Positions 14,176-55,514 of a stretch of 55,514 nucleotides of DNA are shown piece by piece; the stretch's first letter is position 1, and each line of letters starts with the position of its first letter. The stretch comes from Candidatus Woesearchaeota archaeon. GTDB lineage: Archaea; Nanobdellota; Nanobdellia; SCGC-AAA011-G17; GW2011-AR18. The position numbers and the translations under genes are program-made. Below the pieces are notes generated by a model. It did no database searches. It was given only the letters and a program-made list of their open reading frames with translations, and was not told the DNA's origin. The stretch lies in the NCBI GenBank assembly GCA_018302235.1, contig JAGVZW010000034.1, positions 1 to 55,514 on the forward strand, read 5' to 3'.

Positions 14176-14508
14176 CTAAAATTCTGGCCGATACGAGCAG
14201 TCTTCTAATATAAATTCATTTGTGCTAAATAACTTACGGTTACAATATTCATCACTAAAATAACCTACTTCTGTATTAAGTTGAGATGCTAAACACCTAG
14301 AATAACCCATTTCTTCACATATCTCTTCTCCATTCATCCTTATACTCCTAAAGTCTGGTATTCTAGATAATATATAATCCTCTGAAACAAAATAACATCC
14401 AGAATAATCAGGTAATTCTTGGGATATGTGGTTCTGTTCTCCTAAAAATCCCATCCTTCCCGTATAGCTAATACCTATTGTTCCTATCATAAGAACAATA
14501 ACAATCAT
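14176..14508 (-). CDS. Cys-rich N-terminally anchored protein family, copy C1 (possibly decaying)
   Basis: Shares G-x-E-I-C...GYSRC(L/F) and later Cys positions with 15093-15482 and 19717-20151. The frame stays open 11 codons further upstream to an SD-positioned ATA (14541). The CC tail survives only as an out-of-frame remnant near 14091-14114. Confidence 0.5.
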   Translation of the reverse strand: MIVIVLMIGTIGISYTGRMGFLGEQNHISQELPDYSGCYFVSEDYILSRIPDFRSIRMNGEEICEEMGYSRCLASQLNTEVGYFSDEYCNRKLFSTNEFILEDCSYRPEF

Positions 14509-15092: not shown

Positions 15093-15482
15093 CTAACTTA
15101 AGCCTTCCAACATTATATCTCCATTTTCTGGTTCAGTAAATTCTGGATCTAATATTAGATCACATTCATCAGGCACTTCATATGTTTCATCACAAGAAAT
15201 ACTTAAACTAATGTCATCTACATCTTGTAGTTTACCTTGACAACTGCCATCCGTTGAATCAAATGCTCCTTTTCTAAATCTAATATTTGAGAGAAAACAT
15301 CTATTATAATTTAAACTCGTACATATTTCATTTCCTGTTTTTCCACTATAACTAATGCCTGTTGCACTAAGTGCATTCTTATCAATAAATTCACAGTTTC
15401 CTAACATATCTGAATTTTCTTTATTCCAAAAGGCATATCCAGTAAAACCTAAACTTCCTAGAATTAAAATAGCAACAACCAT
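15093..15482 (-). CDS. Cys-rich N-terminally anchored protein family, copy C2 (tail disrupted)
   Basis: Paralog of C1 and C4. Stops at EGLS, and the family tail ...SIVCCKK follows out of frame (15067-15090). Same ATA-for-ATG leader as C1. Confidence 0.5.
   Translation of the reverse strand: MVVAILILGSLGFTGYAFWNKENSDMLGNCEFIDKNALSATGISYSGKTGNEICTSLNYNRCFLSNIRFRKGAFDSTDGSCQGKLQDVDDISLSISCDETYEVPDECDLILDPEFTEPENGDIMLEGLS
15386..15454. repeat. 69-bp coding repeat shared by C2 and C4 (other copy 20028-20096)
   Basis: Near-identical, about 2 mismatches. Encodes GFTGYAFWNKENSD(M/I)LGNCEFI. Confidence 0.85.
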
Positions 15483-15563: not shown

Positions 15564-15700
15564 ATTATGGTTAATATTTGAATCTTCTTTTATAATTTTA
15601 TGATCAAACAATCCTAAACTAAGTATAATAACTATAATTTCATTACTTTTATAGAAATAATGAACATAATCTTTTTAAGATAAATAAATACTATTTGTTT

Positions 15701-17080
15701 ATGACTGAAAGAACTATGCGTCTTTTAATTAAAGTACTAAGTAAATTAAAAAAACAAGATAAAGCTGTAATAAAATCATTTGAAAAGAGGTATAAATCTT
15801 TTAAATTACATAAAGATTATATAAATGCAATAATTTTTACTTATTTTGAATTATTAAAAAATAAAGATTCTAAAGGATTAAAAAATGATCTTAAAGAATG
15901 GATTAATAATCTAATTAAAGATTGTTTAGTTCATTATGATTTAGAAAAAGAAAGTAAACTTTTAGATAAACTTTCAGATGAAAAAGAATTGGTCTATAAG
16001 GTACAAAAAAAACTTGAAGACTTATTAAATAATTTGAAGGTTGAACGATTAAGGGAAAAATTATTGGAAAAATATGAATGGATAAAAGAGGTGAATGTTG
16101 AAGAAATATCTAGTTTATTAGAAGAAAATGCGAGTTTACAATTTTCTTTAGTTGCAGAAGAACAAAGAATTTTAACTAACCTCATAGGTTCTTTAGACGG
16201 TTCTGGGGAGTTATATTCTAAGGACATGGAAGTGAAAGTAGAACAACTTTCTGGGATTATATATCAATTAGAAAAGCTTCTTATAGAAGAAAAAAGAAAA
16301 ATTATAGATCCACTTTATAGTATACTGGCTAGATGTTTGTTTAATATTAAGAAAGAAAAAATAACTAGAGAAGATGTGTTAGAAGATATTGAGGCCATGG
16401 TTGATCATTTAGATGCTATAAATTATTTGAATGCGCTTTTAAGTCTTAATGTTGATAGATCTATATTAAAATATGCACAAAGATTAGCTAAAGAGGCAGA
16501 AAAAAATGCTAGAAATGAAGTGGAATCATTAGAACAACAGGTGATTTTGGATTCATTTACTCGATTGTATAACAAAGCTTATTTTAATATTATGCTACAA
16601 AAATTCACAAAAAAGGCTATTGAAACAAATTCTCCTCTTTCATTAATTACGATTGATATTGATAATTTTAAAATAGTGAATGATCTTTATGGACATACTG
16701 TAGGTGATGATGTTATTAAAGGTTTAGTTGAAAAAATTAAACAAACTGTAAGAAGGAAACAAGATTTGCCTTGTAGATACGGCGGAGAAGAATTTTTTAT
16801 TCTTTTGCCGTATGTAAATTTAGAAGGAGCAAAAAAAATTGCTGAAAATATAAAAAAAGGATTTAAAGAATTGAAATTTGAAGTTGAAAGATATGCACAG
16901 CCACCAGAAAACTCTACAATAAAAATTCTGGAAGAGAATAATAAATATTATATTGGTGTTACTATTAGTATAGGAATTGCTGAATATAATAATGAATTGC
17001 CATTGGAGTTTGTAAAGAAAGCTGATGAGTTTTTAATAAAAGCTAAAAACATAGGGAAAGATTGTATAGTCACTCAATAA
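15701..17080 (+). CDS. GGDEF-domain diguanylate cyclase with about 280-aa helical N-terminal domain
   Basis: DSFTRLYNKAYF, IDIDNFKIVNDLYGHTVGDD, RKQD-LPCRY-GGEEF (I-site RxxD five residues before the A-site), SIGIAEY and ADEFLIKAKNIGKD. ATG at 15701 preferred over TTG at 15695. Confidence 0.85.
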   Translation: MTERTMRLLIKVLSKLKKQDKAVIKSFEKRYKSFKLHKDYINAIIFTYFELLKNKDSKGLKNDLKEWINNLIKDCLVHYDLEKESKLLDKLSDEKELVYKVQKKLEDLLNNLKVERLREKLLEKYEWIKEVNVEEISSLLEENASLQFSLVAEEQRILTNLIGSLDGSGELYSKDMEVKVEQLSGIIYQLEKLLIEEKRKIIDPLYSILARCLFNIKKEKITREDVLEDIEAMVDHLDAINYLNALLSLNVDRSILKYAQRLAKEAEKNARNEVESLEQQVILDSFTRLYNKAYFNIMLQKFTKKAIETNSPLSLITIDIDNFKIVNDLYGHTVGDDVIKGLVEKIKQTVRRKQDLPCRYGGEEFFILLPYVNLEGAKKIAENIKKGFKELKFEVERYAQPPENSTIKILEENNKYYIGVTISIGIAEYNNELPLEFVKKADEFLIKAKNIGKDCIVTQ

Positions 17081-17864: not shown

Positions 17865-18260
17865 TTACTCGATAAGTTCTTTTCTAATTCGAACGATTGG
17901 TTTTGTATCTATCTTTATACCACTTTCTGAATAATATATTACAATATTTCCTTTATTATAAAAAATGGTAGATAAATGTGATTGGTACATTTCTAATTTT
18001 CCCTCTATATATAATGCAGAATTTTTTATTCTTTGAACATTCCATAATCTGTCTTGGTATAATTTTCCTCTAAAAAAATGTAAAACAAATATAGCATGAT
18101 CATCATAAAAAGTAGCATTACCTATCTCAAAATAATAATAATTATTATCTACAAAAACTGGATATTGGCATCCTAATTCAGAAACTCTTTTTAAATTTGA
18201 ATGATTAAAATTATCAACCCATATTTCTTTTATAGGTTGTAATTTTTCATCTATTGTCAC
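17865..18260 (-). CDS. P-family protein, copy P2 (131 aa, unknown function)
   Basis: See P1. GTG start, with the same upstream TATA-like element. Confidence 0.6.
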   Translation of the reverse strand: MTIDEKLQPIKEIWVDNFNHSNLKRVSELGCQYPVFVDNNYYYFEIGNATFYDDHAIFVLHFFRGKLYQDRLWNVQRIKNSALYIEGKLEMYQSHLSTIFYNKGNIVIYYSESGIKIDTKPIVRIRKELIE

Positions 18261-18317
18261 AAATTATTAGTAGTTTATAGATATTTAAATAATTGTGAAT
18301 TATTAAGATATATATTA
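18206..18317. repeat. 112-bp repeat spanning P2 5-prime coding end and promoter (other copy 17429-17540)
   Basis: See the P1 copy. Confidence 0.85.
18284..18291 (-). promoter_or_regulatory. candidate TATA box for leaderless P2 transcript
   Basis: Same element and spacing as for P1. Confidence 0.4.
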
Positions 18318-18327
18318 TAATGTATAG

Positions 18328-18420
18328 TTTATTACCTCTTAAATTTTATAAGAAAATTAATGTGAAGATATATATATATATATATATATATATAACGGTT
18401 TTAAATTTCTTCTATGTTAT
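18328..18420. repeat. orphan copy of the C4 leader/promoter plus the last 5 codons of gene 20211-20444
   Basis: Aligns to 20151-20230 apart from TA-tract length and about 3 substitutions (SD gaggtga becomes gaggtaa). No Cys-rich ORF follows it. Confidence 0.8.
18368..18394. repeat. (TA)n microsatellite, 27 nt
   Basis: Uninterrupted alternating AT run. The homologous tracts are about 13 nt at 20192-20204, 9 nt at 14582-14590 and 11 nt at 15556-15566. Confidence 0.9.
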
Positions 18421-18509
18421 TTTAATATTAAAGAATTTCTAATTTTAATATATAAATAAAAATATTTAAATAGTAATTATATTTAATATTAGTAAAAAAA
18501 CTACTAAAA

Positions 18510-19220
18510 ATGCAATTAAGTAAATTAGAAAACAAAATATATGAAGGTTTAAAAAAGAATAAGATTCCTGTATTTAAATCTAAAGACCTGTGTATTTTGT
18601 TTAATATTGATAAAATAAAGGCATATAATTTAATTAAATCCTTAAAAAGAAAAGATATTATTAAGAATGTTGGAAAAGGATTTTTGGCTTTTAAAGATGT
18701 TAATGAATTTATTATAGGACAAAATTTAAATTATCCTTGTTATCTTTCTTTTTTATCAGCGTTAAATTATTATGCATATACTGATCAATTACCTAAAAAA
18801 ATATACTATGTGACTACTAAATATTCCAAAGAAATTAATAATTTTAAATATATTACTTTTGCAAAAAATAAATTTTTTGGTTATATTAAATTTGGGGATT
18901 TGATTATAGCTGAAAAAGAAAAGGTATTTATAGATTCTTTACTTTATCCTAAATATTCTGGTGGGATAAAAGAAATAATTAAATGTTTTAATGTGTCTAT
19001 AAAAGAATTAGATAAAAAAAAATTAATAGATTATGCTTATAAAACTAAAAATAAAGCTCTTTTGAGAAGGTTGGGTTTTATTTTAGAAATGTTGAAATTT
19101 AATGAAAATATTTTAAAAAAACTTAGAAAAAATACAGGCAATGGATATGAATTATTAGATCCTGATTTAAAGAAAAAAAATAATTTTAATAAAAAATGGA
19201 TGTTAGATATTAATTGTTAA
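18510..19220 (+). CDS. AbiEi-like antitoxin/transcriptional regulator (type IV TA)
   Basis: N-terminal wHTH-like segment (LSKLENKIYEGLKK...FKSKDL...AYNLIKSLKRKDIIKNVGKGFLAF). Followed 1 nt later by an AbiEii-like remnant. Confidence 0.55.
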   Translation: MQLSKLENKIYEGLKKNKIPVFKSKDLCILFNIDKIKAYNLIKSLKRKDIIKNVGKGFLAFKDVNEFIIGQNLNYPCYLSFLSALNYYAYTDQLPKKIYYVTTKYSKEINNFKYITFAKNKFFGYIKFGDLIIAEKEKVFIDSLLYPKYSGGIKEIIKCFNVSIKELDKKKLIDYAYKTKNKALLRRLGFILEMLKFNENILKKLRKNTGNGYELLDPDLKKKNNFNKKWMLDINC

Positions 19221-19716: not shown

Positions 19717-20151
19717 TTATCTTTTACAACAGATTACTCCATCAAATCTTAGTTTTGAAGATTTATCACTAGCAATTCCTATAAATTCATTAGAGCCTGC
19801 TTGCATACAGTTTGTGACTGGACTAAATATTAGGTCTACGCAATCCTCTAAATAATTATCCATTATAACATAAGGTTTGTTACCAGTACAAGATCCATCC
19901 ATTGAACTAAAATAAGTATCAATATTTGTAATTTGTGTAGCAAAGCATCTACTATAACCAAATTCAATACACATATCATTACCCGTTCTAAGCTCAGATG
20001 AACTATCATAATCATTAGGTGAATCTATAAATTCACAGTTTCCTAATATATCTGAATTTTCTTTATTCCAAAAGGCATATCCAGTAAAACCTAAGCCGCC
20101 TAGAAATAAAATAGCAATAATAGATATTACTAAAATTATTTTATTATCCAT
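19717..20151 (-). CDS. Cys-rich N-terminally anchored protein family, copy C4 (intact: SD, ATG, CCKR tail)
   Basis: gaggtgataaaATG start, signal-anchor LVISIIAILFLGGLGFTGYAF, 6 spaced Cys plus C-terminal ...GVICCKR. Confidence 0.7.
   Translation of the reverse strand: MDNKIILVISIIAILFLGGLGFTGYAFWNKENSDILGNCEFIDSPNDYDSSSELRTGNDMCIEFGYSRCFATQITNIDTYFSSMDGSCTGNKPYVIMDNYLEDCVDLIFSPVTNCMQAGSNEFIGIASDKSSKLRFDGVICCKR
20028..20096. repeat. 69-bp coding repeat shared by C4 and C2 (other copy 15386-15454)
   Basis: See 15386-15454. Confidence 0.85.
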
Positions 20152-26157: not shown

Positions 26158-27021
26158 TCAAAAAATAAAAAACTCTTTGAAGGTTAAACTAACTACCAAT
26201 CCTAAAAAAAAACCTGGAATAAATGGAATGCCTTCTTTAACAATAACATATTTTATCTTATTTTTCTTTAAATTCATAATATCTTTTTTTGTTATACCTG
26301 AGCTATTTTTACTACATAAAACCTCATTATTTATCTTTATATCCTCATTTATCCAATCTCCTTCTCTTAGTTTATCAATACTAATTTTTTTGATAAAAAT
26401 AATCTTCTCTAAAATTTTAGCGAAATATAAAAATATAGTGAAAAATAAGATTAGAGAACTAAAAATTATTAAATATGTAAAAAACTTATAAAAGATAATA
26501 TTAATAATAAATAATAAAATAATAATACTAAAAAAATATAGTTTGTGTTTATTTTCAATTCTTTTATGGATTTCTTTAAAATTTTTAATTATTAAATATA
26601 AACCGTAGATTATTGTGTATATTCCTCCGCAGATTATTATATTAACAATTAAGATTGCTAAAAATGGAATTTTTAATTCTAAAATATTTTTTAAATCATA
26701 ACTAAAAATAGCTCCTAGTCCTATTAATAGTTTAGAATCTCCTCCCCCCCACTGTTTAGTATAATACATTAGACAACCAAATAAAAAACAAATTGAGGCA
26801 CCGATTAATCCATAAATAATTATCCAATAATTTTTAGTAAATAAGCTGTAAATTCCCTCTATGCCTAAACTAATTATAATTAAGCTGTAACTTAGCCAAT
26901 CAGGAACTTCTTTTGTCTTAATATCAAATAACATAGCAATAAATACGTAGAATAAAGCAATTATTATTAAAAAATATATCAATTCCATATTTATCTTTAA
27001 AAACATATAATTAATAAACAT
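26158..27021 (-). CDS. A24-family prepilin/preflagellin peptidase (PibD/FlaK-like)
   Basis: Polytopic membrane protein with FDIKTKEVPD and GGGDSKLL (GxGD) aspartyl motifs. Start may be an internal Met. Confidence 0.8.
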   Translation of the reverse strand: MFINYMFLKINMELIYFLIIIALFYVFIAMLFDIKTKEVPDWLSYSLIIISLGIEGIYSLFTKNYWIIIYGLIGASICFLFGCLMYYTKQWGGGDSKLLIGLGAIFSYDLKNILELKIPFLAILIVNIIICGGIYTIIYGLYLIIKNFKEIHKRIENKHKLYFFSIIILLFIINIIFYKFFTYLIIFSSLILFFTIFLYFAKILEKIIFIKKISIDKLREGDWINEDIKINNEVLCSKNSSGITKKDIMNLKKNKIKYVIVKEGIPFIPGFFLGLVVSLTFKEFFIF

Positions 27022-29261: not shown

Positions 29262-30437
29262 ATGTTTAATAAAATAGGACAAAAAGAAGAATTAGCTGGA
29301 AAAGCAGTGATGATTATAATTCTAGTTATTGCTTTTCTTATAGCCTTATATATTTTGTTTTTGCCACCAGAAGAGAGAAGAGATCTGCTTAATCAAGAAG
29401 AACCAACTGGAACACCTAAAACAGGTACTACATTTATAGAATTATTTTCTGAATCACCTGGCAAACTTTATCCACTCAAGGAGTATATTACAACAAAAAA
29501 TATTCCTTCTATAGATCTATATACAAAAACAACTATTCAAGCAGATACACTAAGTCAATCTTTATTTATTTCAAAATCTTTATTCTCTAATAATCCACAA
29601 ACAATATATTTTTCATTAGATTCTCAAGATAAAGCTACCCTTTTTTTTTCTTTAACTGGTGAAAATTCAGGTACATTGAGAATATATATAAATAACAATC
29701 TTTTTTTTTCTGAAAAAATATCAGAAAATGATGTCAAATTAATTAATATTCCTACTAGGTTTTTAAAACAAGAAAATTCTTTATATTTTGAGGTATCATC
29801 TCCTGGTTTATTTTTTTGGAAAACAAATGAAATGCATTTAAAAGATATTGGTATAAGACAAGAAATAGAATCAATAAATATAAAAGAACAGCGTTTATTT
29901 GTTTTTACGAATCAAGAAATTAGTTCACTAAAAACTGCAAAATTATCTTTTTATCAATTTTGTGAAAAAGATATAGGTGGTCATTTAACAATACTATTGA
30001 ATAATATGGAATTATTTAATGCTAATCTAAAATGTATTAATACTGCTACAAATATAGATATTCCTAAGGATATATTAAAAAATGAAAATATATTACAATT
30101 TGAAATAGATAAAGGAGAATTCTCTTTTAATCAAGTAAAAATACAAACAGATACAAAGGAACAAACGTTTCCGTATTATACATTTGAATTGAGTAGTACA
30201 GAATTTAATAAAATAGAAAATTCTACATTAAAAATAACTATGGTTGATGATGGGAAATTAAAAAGTGCCTTATTTTATTTGAACAGTGAGAAATTATCTC
30301 TAAAAACTAGAGACGTAAATTATAATTTTTATGTGCAAGATTATTTAGAATATGGAACAAACTATTTAAGAATTGAACCACTGTCACCGTTTGAAATTAT
30401 TAGTTTAAAAATAACCGCAGAGGAAAACAATGACTGA
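29262..30437 (+). CDS. N-terminally anchored surface protein with three repeated beta-rich modules
   Basis: TM at residues about 14-34. Three similar modules (GTLRIYINNNLFF...NSLYFEV, GHLTILLNNMELF...NILQFEI, SALFYLNSEKL...NYLRIEP). Confidence 0.6.
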   Translation: MFNKIGQKEELAGKAVMIIILVIAFLIALYILFLPPEERRDLLNQEEPTGTPKTGTTFIELFSESPGKLYPLKEYITTKNIPSIDLYTKTTIQADTLSQSLFISKSLFSNNPQTIYFSLDSQDKATLFFSLTGENSGTLRIYINNNLFFSEKISENDVKLINIPTRFLKQENSLYFEVSSPGLFFWKTNEMHLKDIGIRQEIESINIKEQRLFVFTNQEISSLKTAKLSFYQFCEKDIGGHLTILLNNMELFNANLKCINTATNIDIPKDILKNENILQFEIDKGEFSFNQVKIQTDTKEQTFPYYTFELSSTEFNKIENSTLKITMVDDGKLKSALFYLNSEKLSLKTRDVNYNFYVQDYLEYGTNYLRIEPLSPFEIISLKITAEENND

Positions 30438-31782
30438 TGTTGAAAAGAGTCATACTACTACATTTCTTGGAAAATTATTAAAGTTTATTTTTGGTTTTGT
30501 TATATTTATTGTGTTTGTGTTGGCTATTGTTTTTTTGATTAGATTATATGGCACTGGGGGTGGGGCTGTAGCCTTAGAGCATGGAAGTGTAGCAGCAAAA
30601 GAATTTGGTTTACCTGTACTAAAACAAGTTGGTCTTTATGATGCTTATTTGGCTTTTTTTGATCCTACAAAATTATGGGAAAAAGAGATTAATTCTGATA
30701 TAGAAAAGAACGAATATAGACCAGAAGCTGGTGTAAGAATTACAAAATTAGAACCACGTTCATCTTTTTTTGAGGAAGAAAAACCAATAGTTGTTGATGC
30801 TTATATTGATGCTGAGGCTATAGTTAATGATGTTGAAATTTATTTTTATTGTAAATTAGATGATTACCCTGCAATTGGAAAAACAGAGTATATTCCTGCT
30901 GAGGTTTCTTCACTAAATTCTAAAAATAATGCTGCTTTTTTGAAAAAAAATCAGGGCTTAGAAAGAATTAGAGCTACATGTAAGTTTCAAAGCGGTATGA
31001 AGATTCCAAAAGATAATACATTAGGAACACCACAGGTGGTGACATCTAAACAAGTTGAAATAATAGCTAGATTTCCTTTTACTACATTAGCCTCACATAA
31101 AACATATATGCTAAATAAAGAAGAATATGAAAGATTAATCTCAATAAATCAAAATCCATTTGAATATTTTAAGATTTCAGATCCACAATTAAATTATGAT
31201 AGAACAATGAAGTCTAGAACAACAGATGGACCTCTACAATTGGGAATAAGTACTTATCAACAACAACCATTTACTGAAGATATGGCTTATACTATAGCTG
31301 TTGGAATGAAGGATAATCAGGGCTGGGGTATTGGTTCTATGAGATATTTAAATTATTTAGATTTAAAATTACCAGATCCCTATTTTATTTTAGAAAGTGA
31401 TTCATCTTATCCAAATAAAAATTTAATGGATGATACTTGTGCTTTTTACTTTACCGGAGAGATAGATAATATGGGGGTTAGCGGAATAAGATACAAGGTT
31501 TATAGATTAAAAGATGAATATCTTTCAAGGGTTAATGTTGATTGTTCTAAGGATGCTTTAAAGGATGTAAAAGATTTAACTACAGAAGAATGCATTAAAC
31601 TTTATGGGAGCCAACAAATATTTACATGTGATTTTCAGATACCAGAGTTGCCTGCTGAGGAAGGAATATTTGCTGACTTTTTCTTTACAGAAGCATCTTA
31701 TATTTTTGAGGTAAAAAAATCTGCAGCAATAAATATTAGAAAATACCACGATGTGCCAACTACTGGCCCTTTAATAACATAA
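30430..31782 (+). CDS. N-terminally anchored surface protein (450 aa)
   Basis: One N-terminal TM. Overlaps the previous gene by 8 nt. Confidence 0.6.
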   Translation: MTDVEKSHTTTFLGKLLKFIFGFVIFIVFVLAIVFLIRLYGTGGGAVALEHGSVAAKEFGLPVLKQVGLYDAYLAFFDPTKLWEKEINSDIEKNEYRPEAGVRITKLEPRSSFFEEEKPIVVDAYIDAEAIVNDVEIYFYCKLDDYPAIGKTEYIPAEVSSLNSKNNAAFLKKNQGLERIRATCKFQSGMKIPKDNTLGTPQVVTSKQVEIIARFPFTTLASHKTYMLNKEEYERLISINQNPFEYFKISDPQLNYDRTMKSRTTDGPLQLGISTYQQQPFTEDMAYTIAVGMKDNQGWGIGSMRYLNYLDLKLPDPYFILESDSSYPNKNLMDDTCAFYFTGEIDNMGVSGIRYKVYRLKDEYLSRVNVDCSKDALKDVKDLTTEECIKLYGSQQIFTCDFQIPELPAEEGIFADFFFTEASYIFEVKKSAAINIRKYHDVPTTGPLIT

Positions 31783-31813
31783 CTTTTTTATATCTTTGAT
31801 TTATATTTACCTT

Positions 31814-32701
31814 ATGAAAATATTATTATTTATATTATTATTATTTTTAATGTCTTGTGCAACTAAACAACCAATAAACGAAGGAAGGGATGTTAGTTTG
31901 TCTATTATAGAATATCCTGACGGAGAGATATATCCTGAAATTGATACTTTTAAATTAAGAATAAAGATAACAAATCAAGCAAAAAATGATATACAGGGCA
32001 TTCTGTGTGTCTCAGATTCGTTATCTGACAATTTTGGGGGTATTTCTTCGCATGAATGTCAAGATGTATATTTAGAAAAAGGAGAACTTATAGATGAAAA
32101 AATAATTCCAAGAAGTCAAGATTTTCTCTTTCCAGAGGCGAAAAGGGCTACATATTCTTATATTGCGCCTAACAAGGATATTTCTGAATATATATCTTTG
32201 ACTACTACTTTTCAATATGAGATCGAATCAATTTCATCTACTACAATTTGTGTTTCAAATCCATATTTAGATGACCCGTATTGTAATAATAAAGAGATAA
32301 TAAATAATATAAAAAGAGATAATACTCCTTTGATAGTCTCTAAAATAGAAAAATCCACAAATACTTTATCTGAAAACGAAATAAAATTAAACCTTAAATT
32401 CTATTTAGAATTGGAGGAAAATGGATATTTATTATCAAAAAATTCTTTATTTTCACAGGAAAAAACATCCTATCCTGAGATTGAATTTAGGGCTATATTA
32501 AACGAAAATGAAGAATTGACTTGCACTTCATTGGAGAATAACATTTTTAAATTCAAAGAAGATCAAAATATTATTCAATGTTCAATAATATTACCAATTA
32601 AACAAGATTTTATTCAATTAAAATTGGATACTTATCTTGGTTATGGTTTTATGTTAAGAACTGAACCAATACAAATAAAATTAAAAAAGGAGGAATATTA
32701 A
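31814..32701 (+). CDS. lipobox-containing surface protein
   Basis: MKILLFILLLFLMSCATKQ (signal plus Cys). CARDB-like pattern FKLRIKITNQAKNDI. Start reset to the ATG at 31814. Confidence 0.6.
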   Translation: MKILLFILLLFLMSCATKQPINEGRDVSLSIIEYPDGEIYPEIDTFKLRIKITNQAKNDIQGILCVSDSLSDNFGGISSHECQDVYLEKGELIDEKIIPRSQDFLFPEAKRATYSYIAPNKDISEYISLTTTFQYEIESISSTTICVSNPYLDDPYCNNKEIINNIKRDNTPLIVSKIEKSTNTLSENEIKLNLKFYLELEENGYLLSKNSLFSQEKTSYPEIEFRAILNENEELTCTSLENNIFKFKEDQNIIQCSIILPIKQDFIQLKLDTYLGYGFMLRTEPIQIKLKKEEY

Positions 32702-33652
32702 ATGAGAAAATATATCATTTATATAACATTTTTACTCTCTATGTTATTTATTACTGCTGCCAGTTGTGGTGGTGATAGGTCGTCTTCAGAAACAAAATTT
32801 TCGTGGATTGGTGGTACTGATGGAATTATAGCTTCTTTTATACCAGATAGTCCGCCCTTGTCTGTTTTAGGTGGTGGGGTAGATCCATTTACAATAGATG
32901 TACAACTTGAAAATAAGGGTGAATATAATATTAAACCTAATGAGGCCTTAGTTACATTACAAGGCTTTGATTACACATCTTTTTCAATTTCAGCGCCATC
33001 TCAATATATAACAGAGGGTCTGATAGGTAAAACGGAACAAGGAGATGTTATAGTAGAGGGGGATCAATCTTCAGTTTCCTATGAAGCTAATTATGTTGGT
33101 AGTTCAACATTTAGTCAGGAGTTTACAATTACAGCAAATTATTGTTATAAATATCAAACAAAAACAGCAGCTATCTTATGTTTAAAACAAATCCCTAAGG
33201 AAAGAACGAGAGAAACAGAATGTGCTATAGAAAATCAACAGCTACAATTTGGCTCTTCTTCTGCTCCGGTACAAATAACTTCTTTTTCACAAAGATCAAC
33301 TGGAAAAAATGAGATATCTTTTACATTTAAAATAGAAAATAAAGGACAAGGCAATATCTATAAACCTAAGTTTGTTACAAAGGGGGAATGTAGAGATGAT
33401 AAAACATATGCTGATGAGGTATTTGTAAGATTGAATTTTGAATCGGGTAATGTACCAATAAAATGTGCTGCTTTGGATAATGCAAACGAAGGGCATATAA
33501 AATTATCACAGGGCTTAAAACAAATGTCCTGTAGTATAGACACAACAAATTTACAAACATCTGCTTTTGAAAAATCTTTATCTGTTACAATAGAGTATAC
33601 GTATAAAGAATCTGCGTCACAATCAATTACTATTGAAAAATCTTATGAATAA
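32702..33652 (+). CDS. lipobox-containing surface protein, paralogous architecture to 31814-32701
   Basis: LFITAASCGGD lipobox. FTIDVQLENKGEYNI and ISFTFKIENKGQGNI patterns. Starts the base after the upstream stop. Confidence 0.6.
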   Translation: MRKYIIYITFLLSMLFITAASCGGDRSSSETKFSWIGGTDGIIASFIPDSPPLSVLGGGVDPFTIDVQLENKGEYNIKPNEALVTLQGFDYTSFSISAPSQYITEGLIGKTEQGDVIVEGDQSSVSYEANYVGSSTFSQEFTITANYCYKYQTKTAAILCLKQIPKERTRETECAIENQQLQFGSSSAPVQITSFSQRSTGKNEISFTFKIENKGQGNIYKPKFVTKGECRDDKTYADEVFVRLNFESGNVPIKCAALDNANEGHIKLSQGLKQMSCSIDTTNLQTSAFEKSLSVTIEYTYKESASQSITIEKSYE

Positions 33653-49398: not shown

Positions 49399-49854
49399 TT
49401 ATAGATATTTGAAAAAAATTAATAGATTTAATATAATTAAAATTAAAAATAATATATTTTCCATAAAAGAATTTGTCCTTATAAAGCCATTAATTTTTAT
49501 CTTTGTAATAGGAAATAAAGGCATTATACCCTCTTTGGTTAAAGCATCTATTAAAAGGTGGGCTAAATAACCTAAGAATATTGCTAAAGGGTATAATGAA
49601 GAAAAAACGATACTTAATAATAAAAAGATTAAAGAAGGAAAGATAGAATGAAAGAATCTTCTATGCCCAAAGATATTCTCTATTAGTCTACTTATTATTG
49701 GTATTGAAATCTTCGATTTTGAAGAATCTATATCTGGAAGTAAAGAAGAAATAACTAATATTGTTGAAAAAATTAATGGGTGTTCTAAATTGAGATATTT
49801 TATTAAGAAAGCTGAAATTAACATTCCGAATACTATGTGTGTTCTAAATAACAT
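49399..49854 (-). CDS. YdjM/DUF457-family membrane-bound metal-dependent hydrolase
   Basis: MLFRTH start, HRRFFHS and HLLIDALTKEG motifs. Confidence 0.65.
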   Translation of the reverse strand: MLFRTHIVFGMLISAFLIKYLNLEHPLIFSTILVISSLLPDIDSSKSKISIPIISRLIENIFGHRRFFHSIFPSLIFLLLSIVFSSLYPLAIFLGYLAHLLIDALTKEGIMPLFPITKIKINGFIRTNSFMENILFLILIILNLLIFFKYL

Positions 49855-49858
49855 GTGT

Positions 49859-50821
49859 TTAAATATTAATTGAAGATTCCATTTCTTTTAAAAGTTCTTT
49901 TGGATTTTGTTCTTGTATCTCAGTAATTGTAAATTCTGTTCTATCGAACATTTCGTTTCTTTTTGTGCGTCCCTTTAAAATATACTGTTTGCCCATTGTT
50001 TGTGACTTCACTATATTAAAATCTTCTGGGTTTTGACCCAAAATTTTTTCTGCTTGATCTCTAAAACAAACAGCTCTTATATTTGCTGTACCATCATCAA
50101 TAAACATGTTTAATATTGGGATTTGTTTTGGTGAAATACTGCCGTGATTTGAACATTCATAATGATCTTCTAAAAAATTTACTTTTTTATTGCAGACTGG
50201 GCAGGCTTGGTAGAATCTTGGTTCAAATAATTGAACTATTGTACCTAATATTTCTGCATTCTCATTATCTTTAAGATCTTTAATTTGTTTTTTTTCCATT
50301 CTAGATATTTTTATCTCTTCAATTGAAATCCCAGGGGGATTTATTTCTAGGGATGATTTTGAGCCTAAATGCAACTCCTTAAAGCCATTGTTTTCCTTAG
50401 AATATGCATTTTTAATTGATACTATATCTAATTCCTTTAAATTTTGAATTTTGTTTATTAGATTTTCATCCCATATGGTTAATCTAAGAGAGCCGGTTTC
50501 ATCTGCAATTATAATATTAGCTACTTTACCTGCTCTTGTTGATGTAGAAAAACTCCTTATTTCAAATATATTTGTTACCTTTCCTATAGTGTTTACAGAA
50601 TTTAAACCTGGAATAATTTCATTAATTTTTAGATCTTTATTTTGTATTTCAAAGAGATTAACACCCAGTTCATTTGCTATTATATGTGCGGCACCCTCTT
50701 TTGATATTAAATCTTGAAGTTCTATTATTTTTTCTTGTATTTTTGTTTCTATCTCTTGTTTTGATATATTTTTTGTAGAAGAAATTTTTTCTATGATTGT
50801 ATCATAACTTAAACGAAACAT
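49859..50821 (-). CDS. RPA-like single-stranded DNA-binding protein (OB folds plus Zn finger)
   Basis: AAHIIANELGV N-terminal helix, OB pattern GKVANIIIADETGSLRLTIWD, CPVC...C..H finger. Confidence 0.75.
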   Translation of the reverse strand: MFRLSYDTIIEKISSTKNISKQEIETKIQEKIIELQDLISKEGAAHIIANELGVNLFEIQNKDLKINEIIPGLNSVNTIGKVTNIFEIRSFSTSTRAGKVANIIIADETGSLRLTIWDENLINKIQNLKELDIVSIKNAYSKENNGFKELHLGSKSSLEINPPGISIEEIKISRMEKKQIKDLKDNENAEILGTIVQLFEPRFYQACPVCNKKVNFLEDHYECSNHGSISPKQIPILNMFIDDGTANIRAVCFRDQAEKILGQNPEDFNIVKSQTMGKQYILKGRTKRNEMFDRTEFTITEIQEQNPKELLKEMESSINI

Positions 50822-50855: not shown

Positions 50856-51617
50856 TTATTCATTAAGGAGTGGATTATATTTTTTTTGAAGTTCTTTTTT
50901 TAAATCTATTTCTAGCCTTAAATTATTTAATTCAAAATATAACAGGTTATTTTTAAAAAAATAGGTTGTTTTTGGGTATTTTTCTTTTATTTTTGCTTCA
51001 CATTTTGTCTGTGGTTGATTTATGCAGTTTTCAGAAAATATTAAATATAAATCATAATATATATTAAAATCTGGTGTTTTGTAGCTTATTTCTGGGAAAT
51101 ATGTATAAAAAATTGTTAGATTTGTTAATGAATTATTTAATATTATTGAATCAAATATAATTTTTTCCTCTGTTATTTCTTTTATTTTTAATTTCTCTGA
51201 TTCTAAAAGTTTTCTATTAAAATAATATTTTTCTAAGAAAATATTAAAACTTGCTGTATATAATTTTATTTTTTTATCAAATTCTTCTTTAAATTCTTTT
51301 TCTGGGTTTAATTCTTGACATGTATTCCATATAATATATGTTTCTTCTAAATTATCTATACTGCATTTTTGGGCTGCATATCCTCCATTGGTTTCTATTT
51401 GTTCTTCTATGTCTTCTATTGTTTGTTTTATTGCTTCATTTAAGAATAAATTTATTTTTAATTCATCTGTATATGTTTTTTCTATATTGCTAGAGGATTC
51501 TCCAATATTTACCTCTAATCTTTCTTTATTTTGGGATATTATGAAGGCTAGTGATGTAAGAAATATTAATGTTAGAATTATTATTAACGGTGTAAACATA
51601 CCTTTTTTATTTAACAT
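50856..51617 (-). CDS. pilin-like protein with class III signal peptide (253 aa)
   Basis: MLNKKG|MFTPLIIILTLIFL: basic residues, then Gly, then a hydrophobic helix. Confidence 0.55.
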   Translation of the reverse strand: MLNKKGMFTPLIIILTLIFLTSLAFIISQNKERLEVNIGESSSNIEKTYTDELKINLFLNEAIKQTIEDIEEQIETNGGYAAQKCSIDNLEETYIIWNTCQELNPEKEFKEEFDKKIKLYTASFNIFLEKYYFNRKLLESEKLKIKEITEEKIIFDSIILNNSLTNLTIFYTYFPEISYKTPDFNIYYDLYLIFSENCINQPQTKCEAKIKEKYPKTTYFFKNNLLYFELNNLRLEIDLKKELQKKYNPLLNE

Positions 51618-52582
51618 TGAAATACCTCATATAATTCTATAATTAAAATTTTATTGGGATCTTCTGTTGGTAAGAATATTTCTTGCTGGTTAGCTTTGCC
51701 TTCTGATCCTATTAGATTTTCTCCATATATAGTTAATAGCTGTTTTTCTTGTGTTATTATATTATATACTGATAAAGCTAAATTATAATGGAGAGTTGCG
51801 TGTTTTGGAATTCTTTTTATTGGTTCATTTTTGCATGTTCCTAATTTAAATGCATATGTTTTTGGAATTTTTTTAAATAATTCTAGTGATATTTTTTGTG
51901 CTTTTTCTTTTATTTCTGGGTGATTTTCTGCTTTTAATAACAATTCTTTATATACAATATTATGGTTATTTTCTTCTTGAAGGTTTATTATTTCATTGAA
52001 ATCAGACTTCGATTCTGAGTGTGTTTGCCCACGACAATCTACTGTTTTTAATGGATAAAATATTTTTGTTATCATATAATCTTCTGTGATTTCTTTATAT
52101 GTGTTTTTTAGGTAAGTTCTGCCTTCTTTACAGTTTTTACTATTTAATTCTGTTAAAATTGGATTTATATCTAAATCATCTAAATAATCTGGATATGAGT
52201 ATTCTAAATCAACAAGGCATTGACCTATCTTTTTAAAATCTAGACCTTCTTTTATTTCTTCATAACCATAAACGTAAATATTCCATATGTTAGAATTGTC
52301 TTGATTTAAGATACATGAAACCCCTATTGAATCGGCTGTATATGAGATATCTTTGATTGAAAAGATTAGTTCTTTTGACTCTATTGATTCGTCTATAGAA
52401 ATTTTTGTGTTTAATAATGATGTTAATGTAAAGATTTGTTCTTTGGTTATTGATATATTGTCTTTTATGTTTAATGTTTCGAAAGAAAAGAAATATATAC
52501 CGAATATTATAAATATTATAATTAACAAGATTATAGATGGAATAAAGGTTATAGTCAATTCTATTGATGCTTTTCTATGCAT
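51611..52582 (-). CDS. pilin-like protein with class III signal peptide (323 aa)
   Basis: MHRKA|SIELTITFIPSIILLIIIF. Overlaps its neighbours on both sides. Confidence 0.55.
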   Translation of the reverse strand: MHRKASIELTITFIPSIILLIIIFIIFGIYFFSFETLNIKDNISITKEQIFTLTSLLNTKISIDESIESKELIFSIKDISYTADSIGVSCILNQDNSNIWNIYVYGYEEIKEGLDFKKIGQCLVDLEYSYPDYLDDLDINPILTELNSKNCKEGRTYLKNTYKEITEDYMITKIFYPLKTVDCRGQTHSESKSDFNEIINLQEENNHNIVYKELLLKAENHPEIKEKAQKISLELFKKIPKTYAFKLGTCKNEPIKRIPKHATLHYNLALSVYNIITQEKQLLTIYGENLIGSEGKANQQEIFLPTEDPNKILIIELYEVFQC

Positions 52583-53057
52583 TTGGTAATATCACCTCTA
52601 TTTTTAGGATGCCTGTTTCTATCTCATTATTCATTTTATAATTAACTAGCTGTTCTTTCGTGTAACAAATTGAATCCTGCATTGTTGTACATACATCAAA
52701 TTTTGATTTTTGTATTAAATCCATTAAAATTAATGCATTTTTTTCATTTTGATTTTTAATTATATTATTATTTAGATCTTTTAAAGTGAGCTGAAAACCA
52801 ATTTTTTCTTTTTTTATACAATTTTTAATATTATTTTCTGTGAATTTTTCTATGTTTATTATTCCTGGTTCATCTACTAAACAAGAGTATAGTAATTGAA
52901 ATGTAAGAATCTCTGTTTGTAATTCAGGTATATTTAGATCCTGGCTTCTATATTTTATTATTATTGCTGAAAGGAATATTATTATTGCAGTTAAAACTGC
53001 TAATTGTAATAACCAGGTAGGAAATTCTGAGCCTTCTAATAAACCTTTTTTATTCAT
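52575..53057 (-). CDS. pilin-like protein with class III signal peptide (160 aa)
   Basis: MNKKG|LLEGSEFPTWLLQLAVLTAIIIF. Confidence 0.55.
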   Translation of the reverse strand: MNKKGLLEGSEFPTWLLQLAVLTAIIIFLSAIIIKYRSQDLNIPELQTEILTFQLLYSCLVDEPGIINIEKFTENNIKNCIKKEKIGFQLTLKDLNNNIIKNQNEKNALILMDLIQKSKFDVCTTMQDSICYTKEQLVNYKMNNEIETGILKIEVILPNA

Positions 53058-53415
53058 TTTGTAGGATTAATTTACCTTTATTTATAGTTATTCTATGGCT
53101 TTTTTGTTGAGGAAAATCAGTGCAAGGGAATTTTTGAGGAACTATTTCTTTTTCTGTTTGTATTAGAAAATAGCAGGGGTTTTGCTCTCTTTTTATTGCA
53201 AACTCTTCAGGGATAATATATTCTATTTGTAATTTTGATTGTGATAGAACAAATAAATCATTTGTTAAAGTTAGGTCTCTAATTAATGCTCTTTCTTTTA
53301 TAAATGTAGAATCTGTTATTTTATAATATGTAAATATCAAAAAACTAACAAATATTGCTATTAAAATAAAAAATCTTATATATTTATATAATAGTAAATC
53401 TCCTTTATTATTCAT
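53050..53415 (-). CDS. pilin-like protein with class III signal peptide (121 aa)
   Basis: Start reset to the SD-preceded ATG (aaggtgat-7nt-ATG): MNNKG|DLLLYKYIRFFILIAIFV. Confidence 0.55.
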   Translation of the reverse strand: MNNKGDLLLYKYIRFFILIAIFVSFLIFTYYKITDSTFIKERALIRDLTLTNDLFVLSQSKLQIEYIIPEEFAIKREQNPCYFLIQTEKEIVPQKFPCTDFPQQKSHRITINKGKLILQNE

Positions 53416-54721
53416 ATTTACAATCACCTTTTTGTGTTTGTATTATCTGTTCTATTGGATAAGAATCTATTGTTAACTCTTCTGTTAAATAATATTCTGA
53501 AATTCCTTTGTTTTTTAAAAAATCACGGCCTTGTTCTGCGTTTTTATCTTTCAATGCTTTTAAAAGATCCTCTTTCGATGCTTTTAATGATTCTGTTTCT
53601 TCAATTTTTTCTATACTTGTTGTTTTTCTTTCCGGGATATTTATTCCTTTTTCTGGAATAATAATAGCTGGAGATGGATTGTATTGTTGATAATAGGCTT
53701 CAAACAACCATTGGCCTGTTAAGCTAGCCTCTAGAATATATTTTACACCTATGTGCTGATTATTGCCAATATTTGTCTTTATAACCTTTGTAATTTTTTG
53801 TTCTCCTTGTTTTAATTTTAAACAATTTTCTGGGTTAATTAGAAAATCTGTAGGAGATTTTTGATATTTGAAATAAAATAGGTTTTCTCTTTGTTTTATC
53901 TCTGTTGAATAATCTTTTGTATATAAAATTGGAATAAAATCTTTATAATTATTTATCCATTCTTCTTTGAAAAAAAATGTTAATCCTAATCCGGATATTG
54001 TGTCAAATGGAAGATTTAAATTAGGATCTTTTTCAGGGTAAATTTTGTTTATTTTAAAGCAAATCTCTGGTTGTTGGTTTAAAAAATCGCTTCTTTTTTT
54101 AATACCCTTACAATTACCTTCTACGATCTCTGCTGTTAATTCATCTTCTATTTTTTCAGTTGTAGATATTTCTAAACTAGAAAAGATAATATCTTTAAGT
54201 TCTGCTGGTTTAAATCTTGAGATTACTATTACTTGTTCTTTTATTTCTGAACCTTCTGTGGTGATGGATAATTGATCATTGGTTCTTTTTAATGTTAAGA
54301 ATATATTAGCGCCATATTCTTCTGTAGAAAATTGTTTTGTATTTATTGTTTTTATATTTTGAAATTTATAACATTGCTTATTATCACAGTAATTATCTTT
54401 TATTTTACAAAGGCATAAAAATGGGTGTTCTAGATCTATTATCTGTTCTTTTGGTTCTATTATACTACCTTGCGCATAAGTAAATGAAACTAAATTACAA
54501 TTCTCATTATTAAATGGTAATTCTATTTCAGATAAAACATTTTTATCTATATTTTCTAGATTTTTTTTTAAGAGATCCCATGATGGCTGATTAGTACATT
54601 TATCAAAAATTAATGGTGCTACTATATTAGAACCAATATAATATAAAAAAATAACTATAAATACACCAATTACGAGTTCAATTGCTGTTCTAAGAATAGA
54701 TATATCTCCTTTTTTTACCAT
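53408..54721 (-). CDS. large pilin-like protein with class III signal peptide (437 aa)
   Basis: MVKKG|DISILRTAIELVIGVFIVIF. Confidence 0.55.
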   Translation of the reverse strand: MVKKGDISILRTAIELVIGVFIVIFLYYIGSNIVAPLIFDKCTNQPSWDLLKKNLENIDKNVLSEIELPFNNENCNLVSFTYAQGSIIEPKEQIIDLEHPFLCLCKIKDNYCDNKQCYKFQNIKTINTKQFSTEEYGANIFLTLKRTNDQLSITTEGSEIKEQVIVISRFKPAELKDIIFSSLEISTTEKIEDELTAEIVEGNCKGIKKRSDFLNQQPEICFKINKIYPEKDPNLNLPFDTISGLGLTFFFKEEWINNYKDFIPILYTKDYSTEIKQRENLFYFKYQKSPTDFLINPENCLKLKQGEQKITKVIKTNIGNNQHIGVKYILEASLTGQWLFEAYYQQYNPSPAIIIPEKGINIPERKTTSIEKIEETESLKASKEDLLKALKDKNAEQGRDFLKNKGISEYYLTEELTIDSYPIEQIIQTQKGDCKYE

Positions 54722-54894
54722 TGTAATTTTGAGCGAGATGCGTTAACTTGTGTTGCAGTATCTTTGAAATAATTAATTAAATTACCTCCTTCTTTTATAT
54801 AAAATATTACTATAATTATTAAAACAATAATTACAATAATTGCTATAATTACTGTTCCTAGTGTAAGTTCTATTCCTTTTTTATTAGTTTTCAT
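54715..54894 (-). CDS. short pilin-like protein (59 aa, below ORF-track cutoff)
   Basis: Own translation MKTNKKGIELTLGTVIIAIIVIIVLIIIVIFYIKEGGNLINYFKDTATQVNASRSKLQW. Its stop overlaps the ATG of the 437-aa gene. Confidence 0.55.
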   Translation of the reverse strand: MKTNKKGIELTLGTVIIAIIVIIVLIIIVIFYIKEGGNLINYFKDTATQVNASRSKLQW

Positions 54895-54909
54895 AGTAAA
54901 AGAAAAAAA

Positions 54910-55368
54910 TTATTGGTTACAATTTTCACTTACGCCTGCGCAGCTTACTCCGACATTATTTATGCCTTTATTATCTGTTGGTGATCCTTGTGCATTATAC
55001 TGGTCGTTTGTATGTATATTTGGACCGCAATAATATTTTAAAAATTCTCCTTGATTATCACCCCTACTAATTTTTTCTGCTATTCCATCGCCATCAACAT
55101 CAATTTTGAAAGATTGTACACAATAAGCTGATGTTTTCTTTTCATCTACACTTGTGAATAGTTTAGCATCTTGACACCAATTCTCACAAGATATTTTTGC
55201 TTGTGCAAGATCAGTACCTGATGCTCCTCTAAATACATTTTTTATTTTTGTAATTGTTGTACTTGTACCATAAACGAAAAATGCTATTATCACGACTAAA
55301 ACAACTACAACCAAAATACCAATTATAACAGTATTCATAGACAGGCTTTGAGCTTTTTTATTATTCAT
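54910..55368 (-). CDS. pilin-like protein with class III signal peptide and Cys-containing globular domain (152 aa)
   Basis: Start reset to the SD-preceded ATG (aggggtg-6nt-ATG): MNNKKA|QSLSMNTVIIGILVVVVLVV. Confidence 0.55.
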   Translation of the reverse strand: MNNKKAQSLSMNTVIIGILVVVVLVVIIAFFVYGTSTTITKIKNVFRGASGTDLAQAKISCENWCQDAKLFTSVDEKKTSAYCVQSFKIDVDGDGIAEKISRGDNQGEFLKYYCGPNIHTNDQYNAQGSPTDNKGINNVGVSCAGVSENCNQ

Positions 55369-55408
55369 TGATAACACCCCTTTAATTTTTTAATAATGAG
55401 ACAATTTA

Positions 55409-55514
55409 CTATAAATAGTTTGTGGTTTTCCAAAAATCTACTGGTTTACCTGGAACTTCATGACAGTTTATACAACGTGCTTCATATGTTTCAGAACCAC
55501 CTATTTTTATTATT
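55409..55514 (-). CDS. 3-prime end of an ORF continuing beyond the window, contains CINCH (CxxCH)
   Basis: Own translation ...IIKIGGSETYEARCINCHEVPGKPVDFWKTTNYL then stop. Only 35 codons are visible. Confidence 0.3.
   Translation of the reverse strand, partial: IIKIGGSETYEARCINCHEVPGKPVDFWKTTNYL

Follow-up and report, generated by a model that had tools for sequence, protein, structure and literature searches.

The minus strand of a 55,514-nucleotide stretch of DNA from a Candidatus Woesearchaeota archaeon (contig JAGVZW010000034.1 of assembly GCA_018302235.1; hereafter the window) carries seven consecutive genes between positions 50856 and 55368. An earlier note on this DNA, made from the sequence alone, had described them as a type IV pilus-like appendage locus built from unrecognised subunits. 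The list of open reading frames (ORFs) agrees with that description: all seven ORFs are co-directional, each begins with a basic leader followed by a hydrophobic helix, and the N-termini quoted in the note are correct. The proposed function is supported by a T2SSE-family ATPase on the same contig, by the motifs of a prepilin peptidase, and by the conserved leader and synteny. We consider it highly probable that the run encodes pilin-like subunits and makes up the distal half of a locus of at least 13 genes for a filament of this archaeon that resembles type IV pili (T4P).

We refer to the seven genes of the window as g1 to g7, and to the genes beyond the window edge as a to d, ATPase, and platform. 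g1 (54910-55368, 152 aa) begins with the predicted leader MNNKKA/QSLSMNTVII, in which the slash marks the putative cleavage site, and continues with a hydrophobic helix and a head of ~100 aa. g2 (54715-54894, 59 aa) appears to be a helix-only mini-pilin with the leader MKTNKKG/IELTLGTVII. The other five products are pilin-like. They are g3 (53408-54721, 437 aa, N-terminus MVKKG/DISILRTAIELVIG), the putative minor subunits g4 (53050-53415, 121 aa when started from ATG, MNNKG/DLLLYKYIRFFILI) and g5 (52575-53057, 160 aa, MNKKG/LLEGSEFPTWLLQLAV), g6 (51611-52582, 323 aa, MHRKA/SIELTITFIPSII), and g7 (50856-51617, 253 aa, MLNKKG/MFTPLIIILTLIF). The window has a GC content of ~26%, and its products include archaeal RPA, an A24 peptidase, Pelota, and TFIIB.

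Successive genes had been said to overlap by 7-20 nt. This holds in part: five junctions overlap by 7-8 nt (g2/g3, 7 nt; g3/g4, 8; g4/g5, 8; g5/g6, 8; g6/g7, 7), but g1 and g2 do not overlap and are separated by a 15-nt spacer. A 20-nt overlap is obtained only if g4 starts at an upstream GTG. We prefer the ATG as the start of g4 because that GTG sits within a Shine-Dalgarno-like sequence, GGTGA. The subunits may be made in a fixed stoichiometry, as the note had proposed. Clear Shine-Dalgarno-like sequences precede g1, g4, g6, and g7, the strongest being that of g1 (AAAGGGGTG), and a TATA-like TTTATA lies ~50 nt 5' of the g1 ATG. This Shine-Dalgarno sequence and the putative promoter lie in the region between g1 and the window edge (55369-55514, minus strand), together with the 3' end of a decayed thymidine kinase gene.

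The leaders set the run apart from the rest of the window. We applied a rule with two parts: [KR][GA] must occur among residues 1-16, and an uncharged hydrophobic stretch of 16 residues must come after it. The rule is met by eight of the ~93 crude gene calls in the window; seven of these are the genes of the run, and the eighth, at 29262-30437, has a 15-residue leader. The short M-x-[KR]-[GA] leader was found in none of the 16 other window proteins of at least 50 aa that have an N-terminal hydrophobic segment and fail the rule. The leader pattern of the run is far from chance. All seven leaders fit M-x(2-5)-[KR]-[GA] before a hydrophobic helix, and Gly or Ala directly follows the last basic residue in all 10 leader-bearing genes of the locus, a feature kept in the orthologues of other genomes. 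We also scored the 11 subunit families that we built from related loci (see below). [KR][GA] together with a transmembrane (TM) segment occurs in 70-95% of the members of nine families (a, b, c, g1-g4, g6, and g7), compared to 48% (15/31) for g5, 34% for d, and 19% for other N-terminally anchored proteins of the same loci.

The earlier note had reported that no assembly ATPase or platform protein is encoded in the window and that the locus runs to its edge. Both points were borne out, and the edge proved to be an assembly break, since it coincides with the start of a contig of another assembly (L002). Searching with the exact g3 sequence identified a 77-kb contig (L001) that represents the same contig; its sequence from position 9208 onward equals the window's reverse complement, with 0 mismatches over the 12,107 nt compared. 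Past position 55514, L001 carries a T2SSE-family ATPase gene and a polytopic platform candidate. The ATPase, platform, and a-d genes form the upstream half of the locus, at L001 85-8656, on the same strand as g1-g7. The genome does contain a type IV assembly ATPase, on the same contig and strand and 7-9 kb upstream of g1, so the refuting case named in the earlier note, a genome that lacks any such ATPase or platform, does not apply.

The ATPase gene (L001 85-2376) codes for a protein of 763 aa that matches PF00437 (T2SSE) with E 4e-18. Its best NCBIfam model is FlaI (E 5e-41), followed by TadA (E 2e-35), with both matches below the equivalog cutoffs and the FlaI match far below. Among PDB sequences, it matches AfGspE (2OAP) at 2e-25, CpaF at 8e-25, and FlaI at 3e-14. 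By sequence, it is a T2SSE-family enzyme of the PilB/FlaI/TadA type. The platform candidate starts 1 nt past the ATPase stop codon and codes for 721 aa with ~10 hydrophobic segments and two soluble loops. The idea that it arose by internal duplication, as a fusion of TadB/TadC-like halves, is unsupported (hhalign probability 0.7%).

Four further genes follow the platform candidate on L001. a (36 aa, MNKKG/MEVKE), b (244 aa, MNKKG/IVTST), and c (50 aa, MWLKKG/DIELS) come in this order and share the leader of g1-g7. The product of d (L001 5561-8656, 1031 aa) has an N-terminal hydrophobic helix with no KG. Pfam and NCBIfam scans of the a-d proteins returned nothing above noise. Between d and g1 lies the decayed thymidine kinase gene (L001 8657-9353, with 55369-55514 as its part in the window). 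It retains a TK segment (PF00265, E 3e-9), its frame is broken by in-frame TAA and TAG codons, and it ends in a Zn-ribbon tail, YEARCINCHEVPGKPVDFWKTTNYL, followed by a stop codon. Most related loci have just ~20-100 nt between d and g1, and at least two assemblies break at the thymidine kinase remnant. The full order is ATPase, platform candidate, a, b, c, d, thymidine kinase pseudogene, g1-g7, and RPA, giving a locus of at least 13 genes of which 10-11 encode pilin-like proteins.

A matching A24 prepilin peptidase had been placed 24 kb away from the run, next to a gene for a PEGA-domain protein. We recovered both. The peptidase gene (26158-27021, minus strand) matches PF01478 with E 4e-10 and codes for both catalytic Asp motifs (D33 in FDIKTKEVPD and D95 in GGGD) in a protein with ~six TM segments and a soluble insert; the neighboring gene at 25590-26111 matches PEGA with E 3e-32. 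In another assembly the peptidase is called as a 282-aa gene with a later start. NCBIfam scores favor FlaK_Arch (E 3e-12, below the curated cutoff) over EppA (E 0.75), and there is a weak match to Arc_PepC. Judged by these scores and motifs, the enzyme is a class III signal (prepilin) peptidase and is of the FlaK/PibD rather than the EppA type.

The affinity of the peptidase to FlaK, together with the FlaI model being the best NCBIfam match of the ATPase, could point to an archaellum. The remaining evidence speaks against it. No archaellin or FlaH/KaiC-type protein is found among the locus products, for which Pfam recorded just two matches, T2SSE and the TK fragment. In PDB sequences, AfGspE and CpaF (~1e-25) match the ATPase better than FlaI does (3e-14), and the gene order and subunit sizes are unlike those of the fla operon (PMC4858521). 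With no archaellin or FlaH and an ATPase of this affinity, we exclude an archaellum for practical purposes.

The earlier note had also proposed that conservation of the seven-gene order be examined. BLAST searches across genomes find only g1, g5, and b among the pilin-like proteins, at 25-45% identity. A word-indexed search from the single g1 sequence returned three relatives, and the g7 profile returned eight. Because direct searches found so few relatives, we built the families from synteny in loci of GTDB genomes. Scanning these genomes with the platform protein gave 68 loci at 44-58% identity. All platform relatives with a named taxon come from Woesearchaeota, Nanoarchaeota, or Nanoarchaeia, and they include the complete genome GW2011_AR20; the records of the others read simply 'archaeon'.

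Crude gene calling in these loci yields a recurring map. The ATPase (~760 aa) and platform (~720 aa) are followed by proteins of ~36, ~250-300, ~50, and ~200 or more aa, then by the g run with proteins of ~125, ~60, ~180-540, ~125, ~160, ~165, and ~240 aa, and finally by RPA and YdjM. Each protein between the platform and RPA has a class-III-like N-terminus, except for the one of ~200 or more aa. We built hidden Markov models (HMMs) for the 11 families from 12 clean syntenic loci, and these recover the 11 positions as distinct families of 23-56 ORFs each in the same order. Among the 33 loci with at least 8 kb of sequence after the platform gene, 14 contain all seven g families strictly in order, 11 more contain five to seven of them, and five represent a variant that lacks the g families. 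The seven-gene order thus recurs across Woesearchaeota and Nanoarchaeia. The conserved synteny also reaches upstream of the ATPase.

Compared with the proteins of our locus, the ATPase has a median identity of 57% and the platform one of 49%, but the pilin-like proteins reach at most 39%. A conserved motor combined with divergent pilin-like proteins is what one would expect if the subunits are exposed and evolve fast. All 11 families share an N-terminal module (hhalign probability 60-97%). Their globular parts are unrelated, with the exception of d and g3 (hhalign probability 81-86%).

Three features of the related loci concern the motor genes and their surroundings. In the five variant loci (L027, L046, L047, L048, and L056), the same ATPase and platform are present and g1-g7 are replaced by proteins of ~650-790 and ~220-240 aa, which may mean that the motor handles another filament or another set of substrates in these loci. 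In ~11 related genomes (L020, L023, L032, L033, L038, L041, L049, L052, L054, L055, and L059), the ATPase ORF spans ~1250-1460 aa rather than ~760, which suggests an intein or other large insertion. Directly 5' of the ATPase, most related loci contain a conserved trio of ~180-aa paralogous membrane proteins with the motif LPFLLVFTIxFAILEKT (L037 4957-7612), and the trio is followed by two divergently transcribed genes for coiled-coil/acidic proteins. Neither the trio nor the coiled-coil pair has Pfam matches; they may be extra components of the machine or mere syntenic neighbors.

We compared g1 and g2 as candidates for the major subunit. g1 belongs to the best-conserved pilin-like family, with a median identity of 39%. 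Six Cys are present in 33 of 39 family members, and a DxDxDG-like loop (FKIDVDGDGIAEK in the g1 of the window) is present in 27 of 39; weak EF-hand matches occur in 8 of 111 relatives. An AlphaFold2 (AF2) model based on a 111-sequence alignment reached a pLDDT of 81 and a pTM of 0.60. The model predicts a helix at residues 11-45 (35 residues) that protrudes from a compact head of helical and small-beta elements. A pilin fold, meaning a long N-terminal helix with a globular head, is seen for g1 only, in this AF2 model. The head of the bacterial pseudopilin GspG is stabilized by a Ca2+ site, and the heads of T4a pilins are stabilized by disulfides. By analogy with these bacterial heads, the six Cys and the DxDxDG-like loop of g1 would fit an extracellular subunit, and we suggest that the g1 head is disulfide-stabilized and probably Ca2+-stabilized.

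PF04021 (Class_IIIsignal, UPF0333) is weakly matched by 22 of 111 g1 relatives (best E 0.005), and one distant relative is labelled 'UPF0333 family' by JGI. The best match of the g1 profile to PDB sequences is 8fk7_A (an archaeal chain named 'Flagellin'), which is non-significant (E 0.65) and in register from the leader onward. Relatives of g2 are 47-75 aa long, lack a head, and align to the N-terminus of g1 (hhalign g1 versus g2, 97% over 51 columns). The a and c proteins are shorter still and, like g2, helix-only. g1 is most likely the major subunit, which we infer because it is first in the run, has the best Shine-Dalgarno sequence, is the best conserved, and has a compact head. The alternative is that g2 serves as a major subunit of the EpdE/Flp type.

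The size of g7 is constant, with 16 of 19 aligned homologues measuring ~235-255 aa; G39, C198, and C206 are invariant in this family, and C85 is near-invariant. The g5 family has an invariant C59, a C80 in at least 90% of members, and a third Cys in the majority consensus; its KG is separated from the hydrophobic helix by a polar spacer of ~10 residues. The g4 syntenic family contains 34 ORFs. g3 has relatives in 74 representative clusters (exhaustive phmmer), with the similarity confined to residues 1-~165. In the loci, g3 relatives range from 139 to 546 aa and most are ~170-250 aa long, compared to 437 aa here, where a lineage-specific, Cys-rich C-terminal extension is present. g6 and d are also larger than usual, with 323 and 1031 aa here versus ~165 and ~200 aa elsewhere.

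This added length derives from a Cys-containing module of ~100 aa with the pattern SEELRF…G[IV]QCxL…W…C[QK]EGY..LKN. Four copies are found in d, one in g6 (residues 63-175, including GVSCILNQDNSNIW), and one in g3 (residues 317-409, E 6e-4 with an HMM built without g3). None was found in the other 68 loci. By this sequence comparison, g6 is enlarged over its ~165-aa norm by one copy of the module. Because each has gained copies of this lineage-specific module, we propose d, g3, and g6 as the best candidates for ligand- or host-binding parts, with g3 as a candidate adhesin or tip subunit.

Several observations weigh against the assignment of these genes to a type IV filament locus. No Pfam or NCBIfam pilin family is matched at threshold by the window proteins, and none of the 11 families reaches the thresholds of these libraries. 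The word 'unrecognised' in the earlier note was well chosen: g1-g7 and their family profiles have no Pfam, NCBIfam, or PDB-sequence match, and the g1 model has no Foldseek match in the PDB. Member-by-member Pfam scans gave nothing consistent for the g4, g5, and g7 families and only the weak PF04021 and EF-hand matches for g1. A single match of one g7 relative to TadE (E 0.31) is noise. PDB profile searches with g1, g4, g5, g7, and the platform returned nothing significant, and the platform candidate had no PDB match in sequence searches either. Its assignment as a platform is suggested by its position, its topology, and T2SSF matches that are all sub-threshold (E 0.01 for the protein itself; 8 of 24 homologues, best E 0.003). 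For g3-g7, it is only the N-terminus and the genomic context that point to pilins, and the AF2 model of g7, made from a 9-sequence alignment, is unusable (pLDDT 40).

The leaders themselves also deviate from the published pattern. The FlaFind 1.2 motif, [KRDE][GA][ALIFQMVED][ILMVTAS] before a TM segment (PMC4307647), was re-implemented as published. The motif is matched by g1 (KAQS), g3 (KGDI), g4 (KGDL), and g5 (KGLL), but not by g2 (KGIE), g6 (KASI), and g7 (KGMF), each of which misses at one position. The pass rate is also low among relatives, with 3 of 40 in the g1 family. Most g1 relatives fail because position +2 is usually Glu, as seen in the family consensus [KR]-G/x-E-L-S-[ML]-N. In addition, charged or polar residues, often several of them, separate [KR][GA] from the helix in c and g3-g6; this is atypical for class III signals.

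These deviations could mean that several or even all of the proteins, with c and g3-g6 as the foremost candidates, are uncleaved N-terminal anchors of accessory or envelope proteins, and that MNKKG simply reflects the positive-inside rule in an AT-rich genome. Such an origin would agree with the three failures among seven and the low family pass rates, with the abundance of Lys and Asn at ~26% GC, and with the 19% of other N-terminally anchored proteins in related loci that meet the loose rule. Against it stand the Gly or Ala that follows the last basic residue in every leader-bearing gene and in orthologues, the restriction of the rule outside the run to a single window gene, with none among the 16 other anchored proteins, and the fixed gene order behind a type IV filament (TFF) ATPase and platform gene. 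We regard uncleaved anchors as improbable. The leaders are best described, from their sequences, as class-III-like but lineage-specific, and many of them would probably escape a standard predictor. Leaders of only 3-4 residues are reported to be accepted by PibD (PMC4307647), so the 5-7-residue leaders of this locus are compatible with such an enzyme.

g7 is followed on the same strand by the genes for RPA (replication factor A, 49859-50821) and a YdjM-family membrane hydrolase (49399-49854). The gap between g7 and RPA is 34 nt in the window and usually <100 nt in the loci examined, and the arrangement is kept in at least 16 related loci. A single-strand-binding protein gene in this position invites a different reading of the same machine, namely a short pseudopilus or piston, as in type II secretion systems (T2SS) or Com systems, that serves DNA/nucleoside uptake or secretion rather than a long adhesive pilus. 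In another DPANN group, the Undinarchaeota, pili have been proposed to import DNA (PMC7414124). The layout of the locus also resembles the gspG-K and comGC-GG operons, with a conserved subunit first and distinct, overlapping genes for minor pilin-like proteins after it.

We nevertheless consider a pseudopilus unlikely. No ComEC/ComEA-like gene or nuclease is present in the locus or in the 20-kb Pfam-annotated stretch of the window, and RPA scores as an ordinary replication factor A. Its adjacency is part of a broader synteny that reaches upstream of the ATPase. RPA next to g7 is therefore a weak link to competence, since synteny extends well past the locus on both sides. The RPA/YdjM adjacency probably represents general synteny, and co-transcription of these two genes with the pilin operon is possible. 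The large, variable, module-bearing d, g3, and g6 also fit adhesins better than parts of a piston.

A mechanism for the preferred reading, an extracellular type IV filament, can be drawn from what is established for such filaments. Precursors would insert in the membrane via their N-terminal hydrophobic helix, and the FlaK/PibD-type A24 peptidase would cut after [KR]-[GA] to release the basic leader of 5-7 residues. Mature subunits would then be pulled out of the membrane by the ATPase and platform, which would pack their helices into a filament. g1 would be the major filament subunit, with the helix-only g2 as the alternative, and g3-g7 would act as minor pilins that initiate assembly and build a complex serving as tip or adaptor. 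In a DPANN archaeon, such a filament could plausibly attach the cell to surfaces or hosts, and general literature statements on DPANN fit this role (PMC9938205).

We compared the locus to described type IV filament systems. The closest described layout is that of the Epd pilus from Methanococcus maripaludis (System 1), and System 1 has been reported in some DPANN (PMC4858521; bioRxiv 10.64898/2026.04.22.720090). Both loci are multi-gene (~11) and contain an ATPase, a platform, and many class III signal proteins (at least five minor pilins). Both also combine helix-only pilins (EpdE there; g2, a, and c here) with large adhesin-like proteins. The Epd system differs in having two platform genes, compared to a single 721-aa candidate here, and a dedicated EppA/EpdA-type peptidase (9 TM segments, arCOG02300), compared to an unlinked FlaK/PibD-like enzyme that is the only A24 peptidase seen in the window. 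Our searches show no subunit homology to Epd pilin families, and the comparison of the ATPase covered clades 2 (AfGspE) and 3 (FlaI) of the 2016 Makarova tree, via the PDB.

Euryarchaeal PilB/PilC-PilA adhesion pili (clade 2, arCOG01817; PilA1-6 of Haloferax volcanii) also have adjacent ATPase and platform genes. AfGspE (2OAP), the closest solved relative of the ATPase, has been assigned to clade 2 (PMC4858521 supplement). PilA-family pilins are unmatched here, and pilins in clade 2 systems usually stand alone, in contrast to the fixed array of 11 genes in this locus. The Tad/Flp pilus shares very short, helix-only subunits, and CpaF (8e-25) and AfGspE match the ATPase about equally well. Neither a Flp motif nor homologues of TadE/F/G or RcpA were found here.

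Bacterial T2SS (GspG-K), Com (ComGC-GG), and type IVa pilus (T4aP; FimU-PilVWXE) operons start with a conserved major subunit, which is followed by tightly overlapping genes for distinct minor pilins. Initiation of assembly and capping of the tip are attributed to these minor pilins. The Woesearchaeota locus has the same gene layout, and the DxDxDG-like loop and six Cys of g1 recall the Ca2+ site of GspG and the disulfides of T4a pilins. It differs in having no sequence or structure match to these systems, 10-11 pilin-like proteins rather than 4-6, no Glu at +5 (the g1 and g2 families have Glu at +2), and no secretin or outer-membrane context.

The locus may represent a distinct, Woesearchaeota-wide TFF subsystem outside systems 1-4 of Makarova and Albers, serving this large uncultured DPANN lineage as its principal host-contact organelle, with rapidly exchanged adhesin modules on d, g3, and g6 that set host specificity. 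We view this as a tentative proposal that is more doubtful than not. Its marks may be the 11 fixed-order pilin-like families, the three helix-only mini-pilins (31-52 mature residues), and a non-canonical leader ([KR]-G/x-E-L-S-M-N for g1 and g2, with polar spacers in other families) that escapes FlaFind-type detection. A platform too divergent for T2SSF and a new disulfide- and Ca-stabilized pilin head fold may be further marks. The status of a new subsystem might be deserved if the ATPase forms its own clade.

Elsewhere in the window, a four-gene cluster at 29262-33652 codes for membrane/secreted proteins of 391, 450, 301, and 316 aa that match no Pfam family. Its first protein has a longer class-III-like N-terminus, MFNKIGQKEELAGKA/VMIIILV, and its last has a lipoprotein-like signal, ITAASCGG. 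Three small proteins (14176-14508, 15093-15482, and 19717-20151) are paralogues, each with a hydrophobic segment at the N-terminus and the motif LGSLGFTGYAFWNKENSD.LGNCEF. The region of 15695-17080 and 17865-19220 (L071 16582-20522) shows that this small archaeal genome has genes for a GGDEF-domain protein and an AbiEii-family protein, according to precomputed Pfam annotation.

The 2016 census of archaeal T4P contains no Woesearchaeota, and its 'nanoarchaea' are only Nanoarchaeum equitans and Nst1 (PMC4858521); Woesearchaeota are unmentioned in a 2026 MacSyFinder survey. The literature holds general statements on DPANN pili, and none of the papers found describes this locus. Archaea of this lineage are abundant and uncultured, have small genomes, and are presumed to be host-dependent. 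We see the locus as a divergent member, unannotated until now, of a known class of machine. Such machinery is expected in DPANN and introduces no new principle. At least 13 'hypothetical' genes are now assigned to a type IV filament machine, and 11 subunit families are defined that were largely missed by domain libraries and by the published class III motif. Profiles of the kind built here would help fill the Woesearchaeota gap in the T4P census. The analysis also provides concrete targets: g1 or g2 for the filament, and the variable proteins d, g3, and g6 as possible adhesins.

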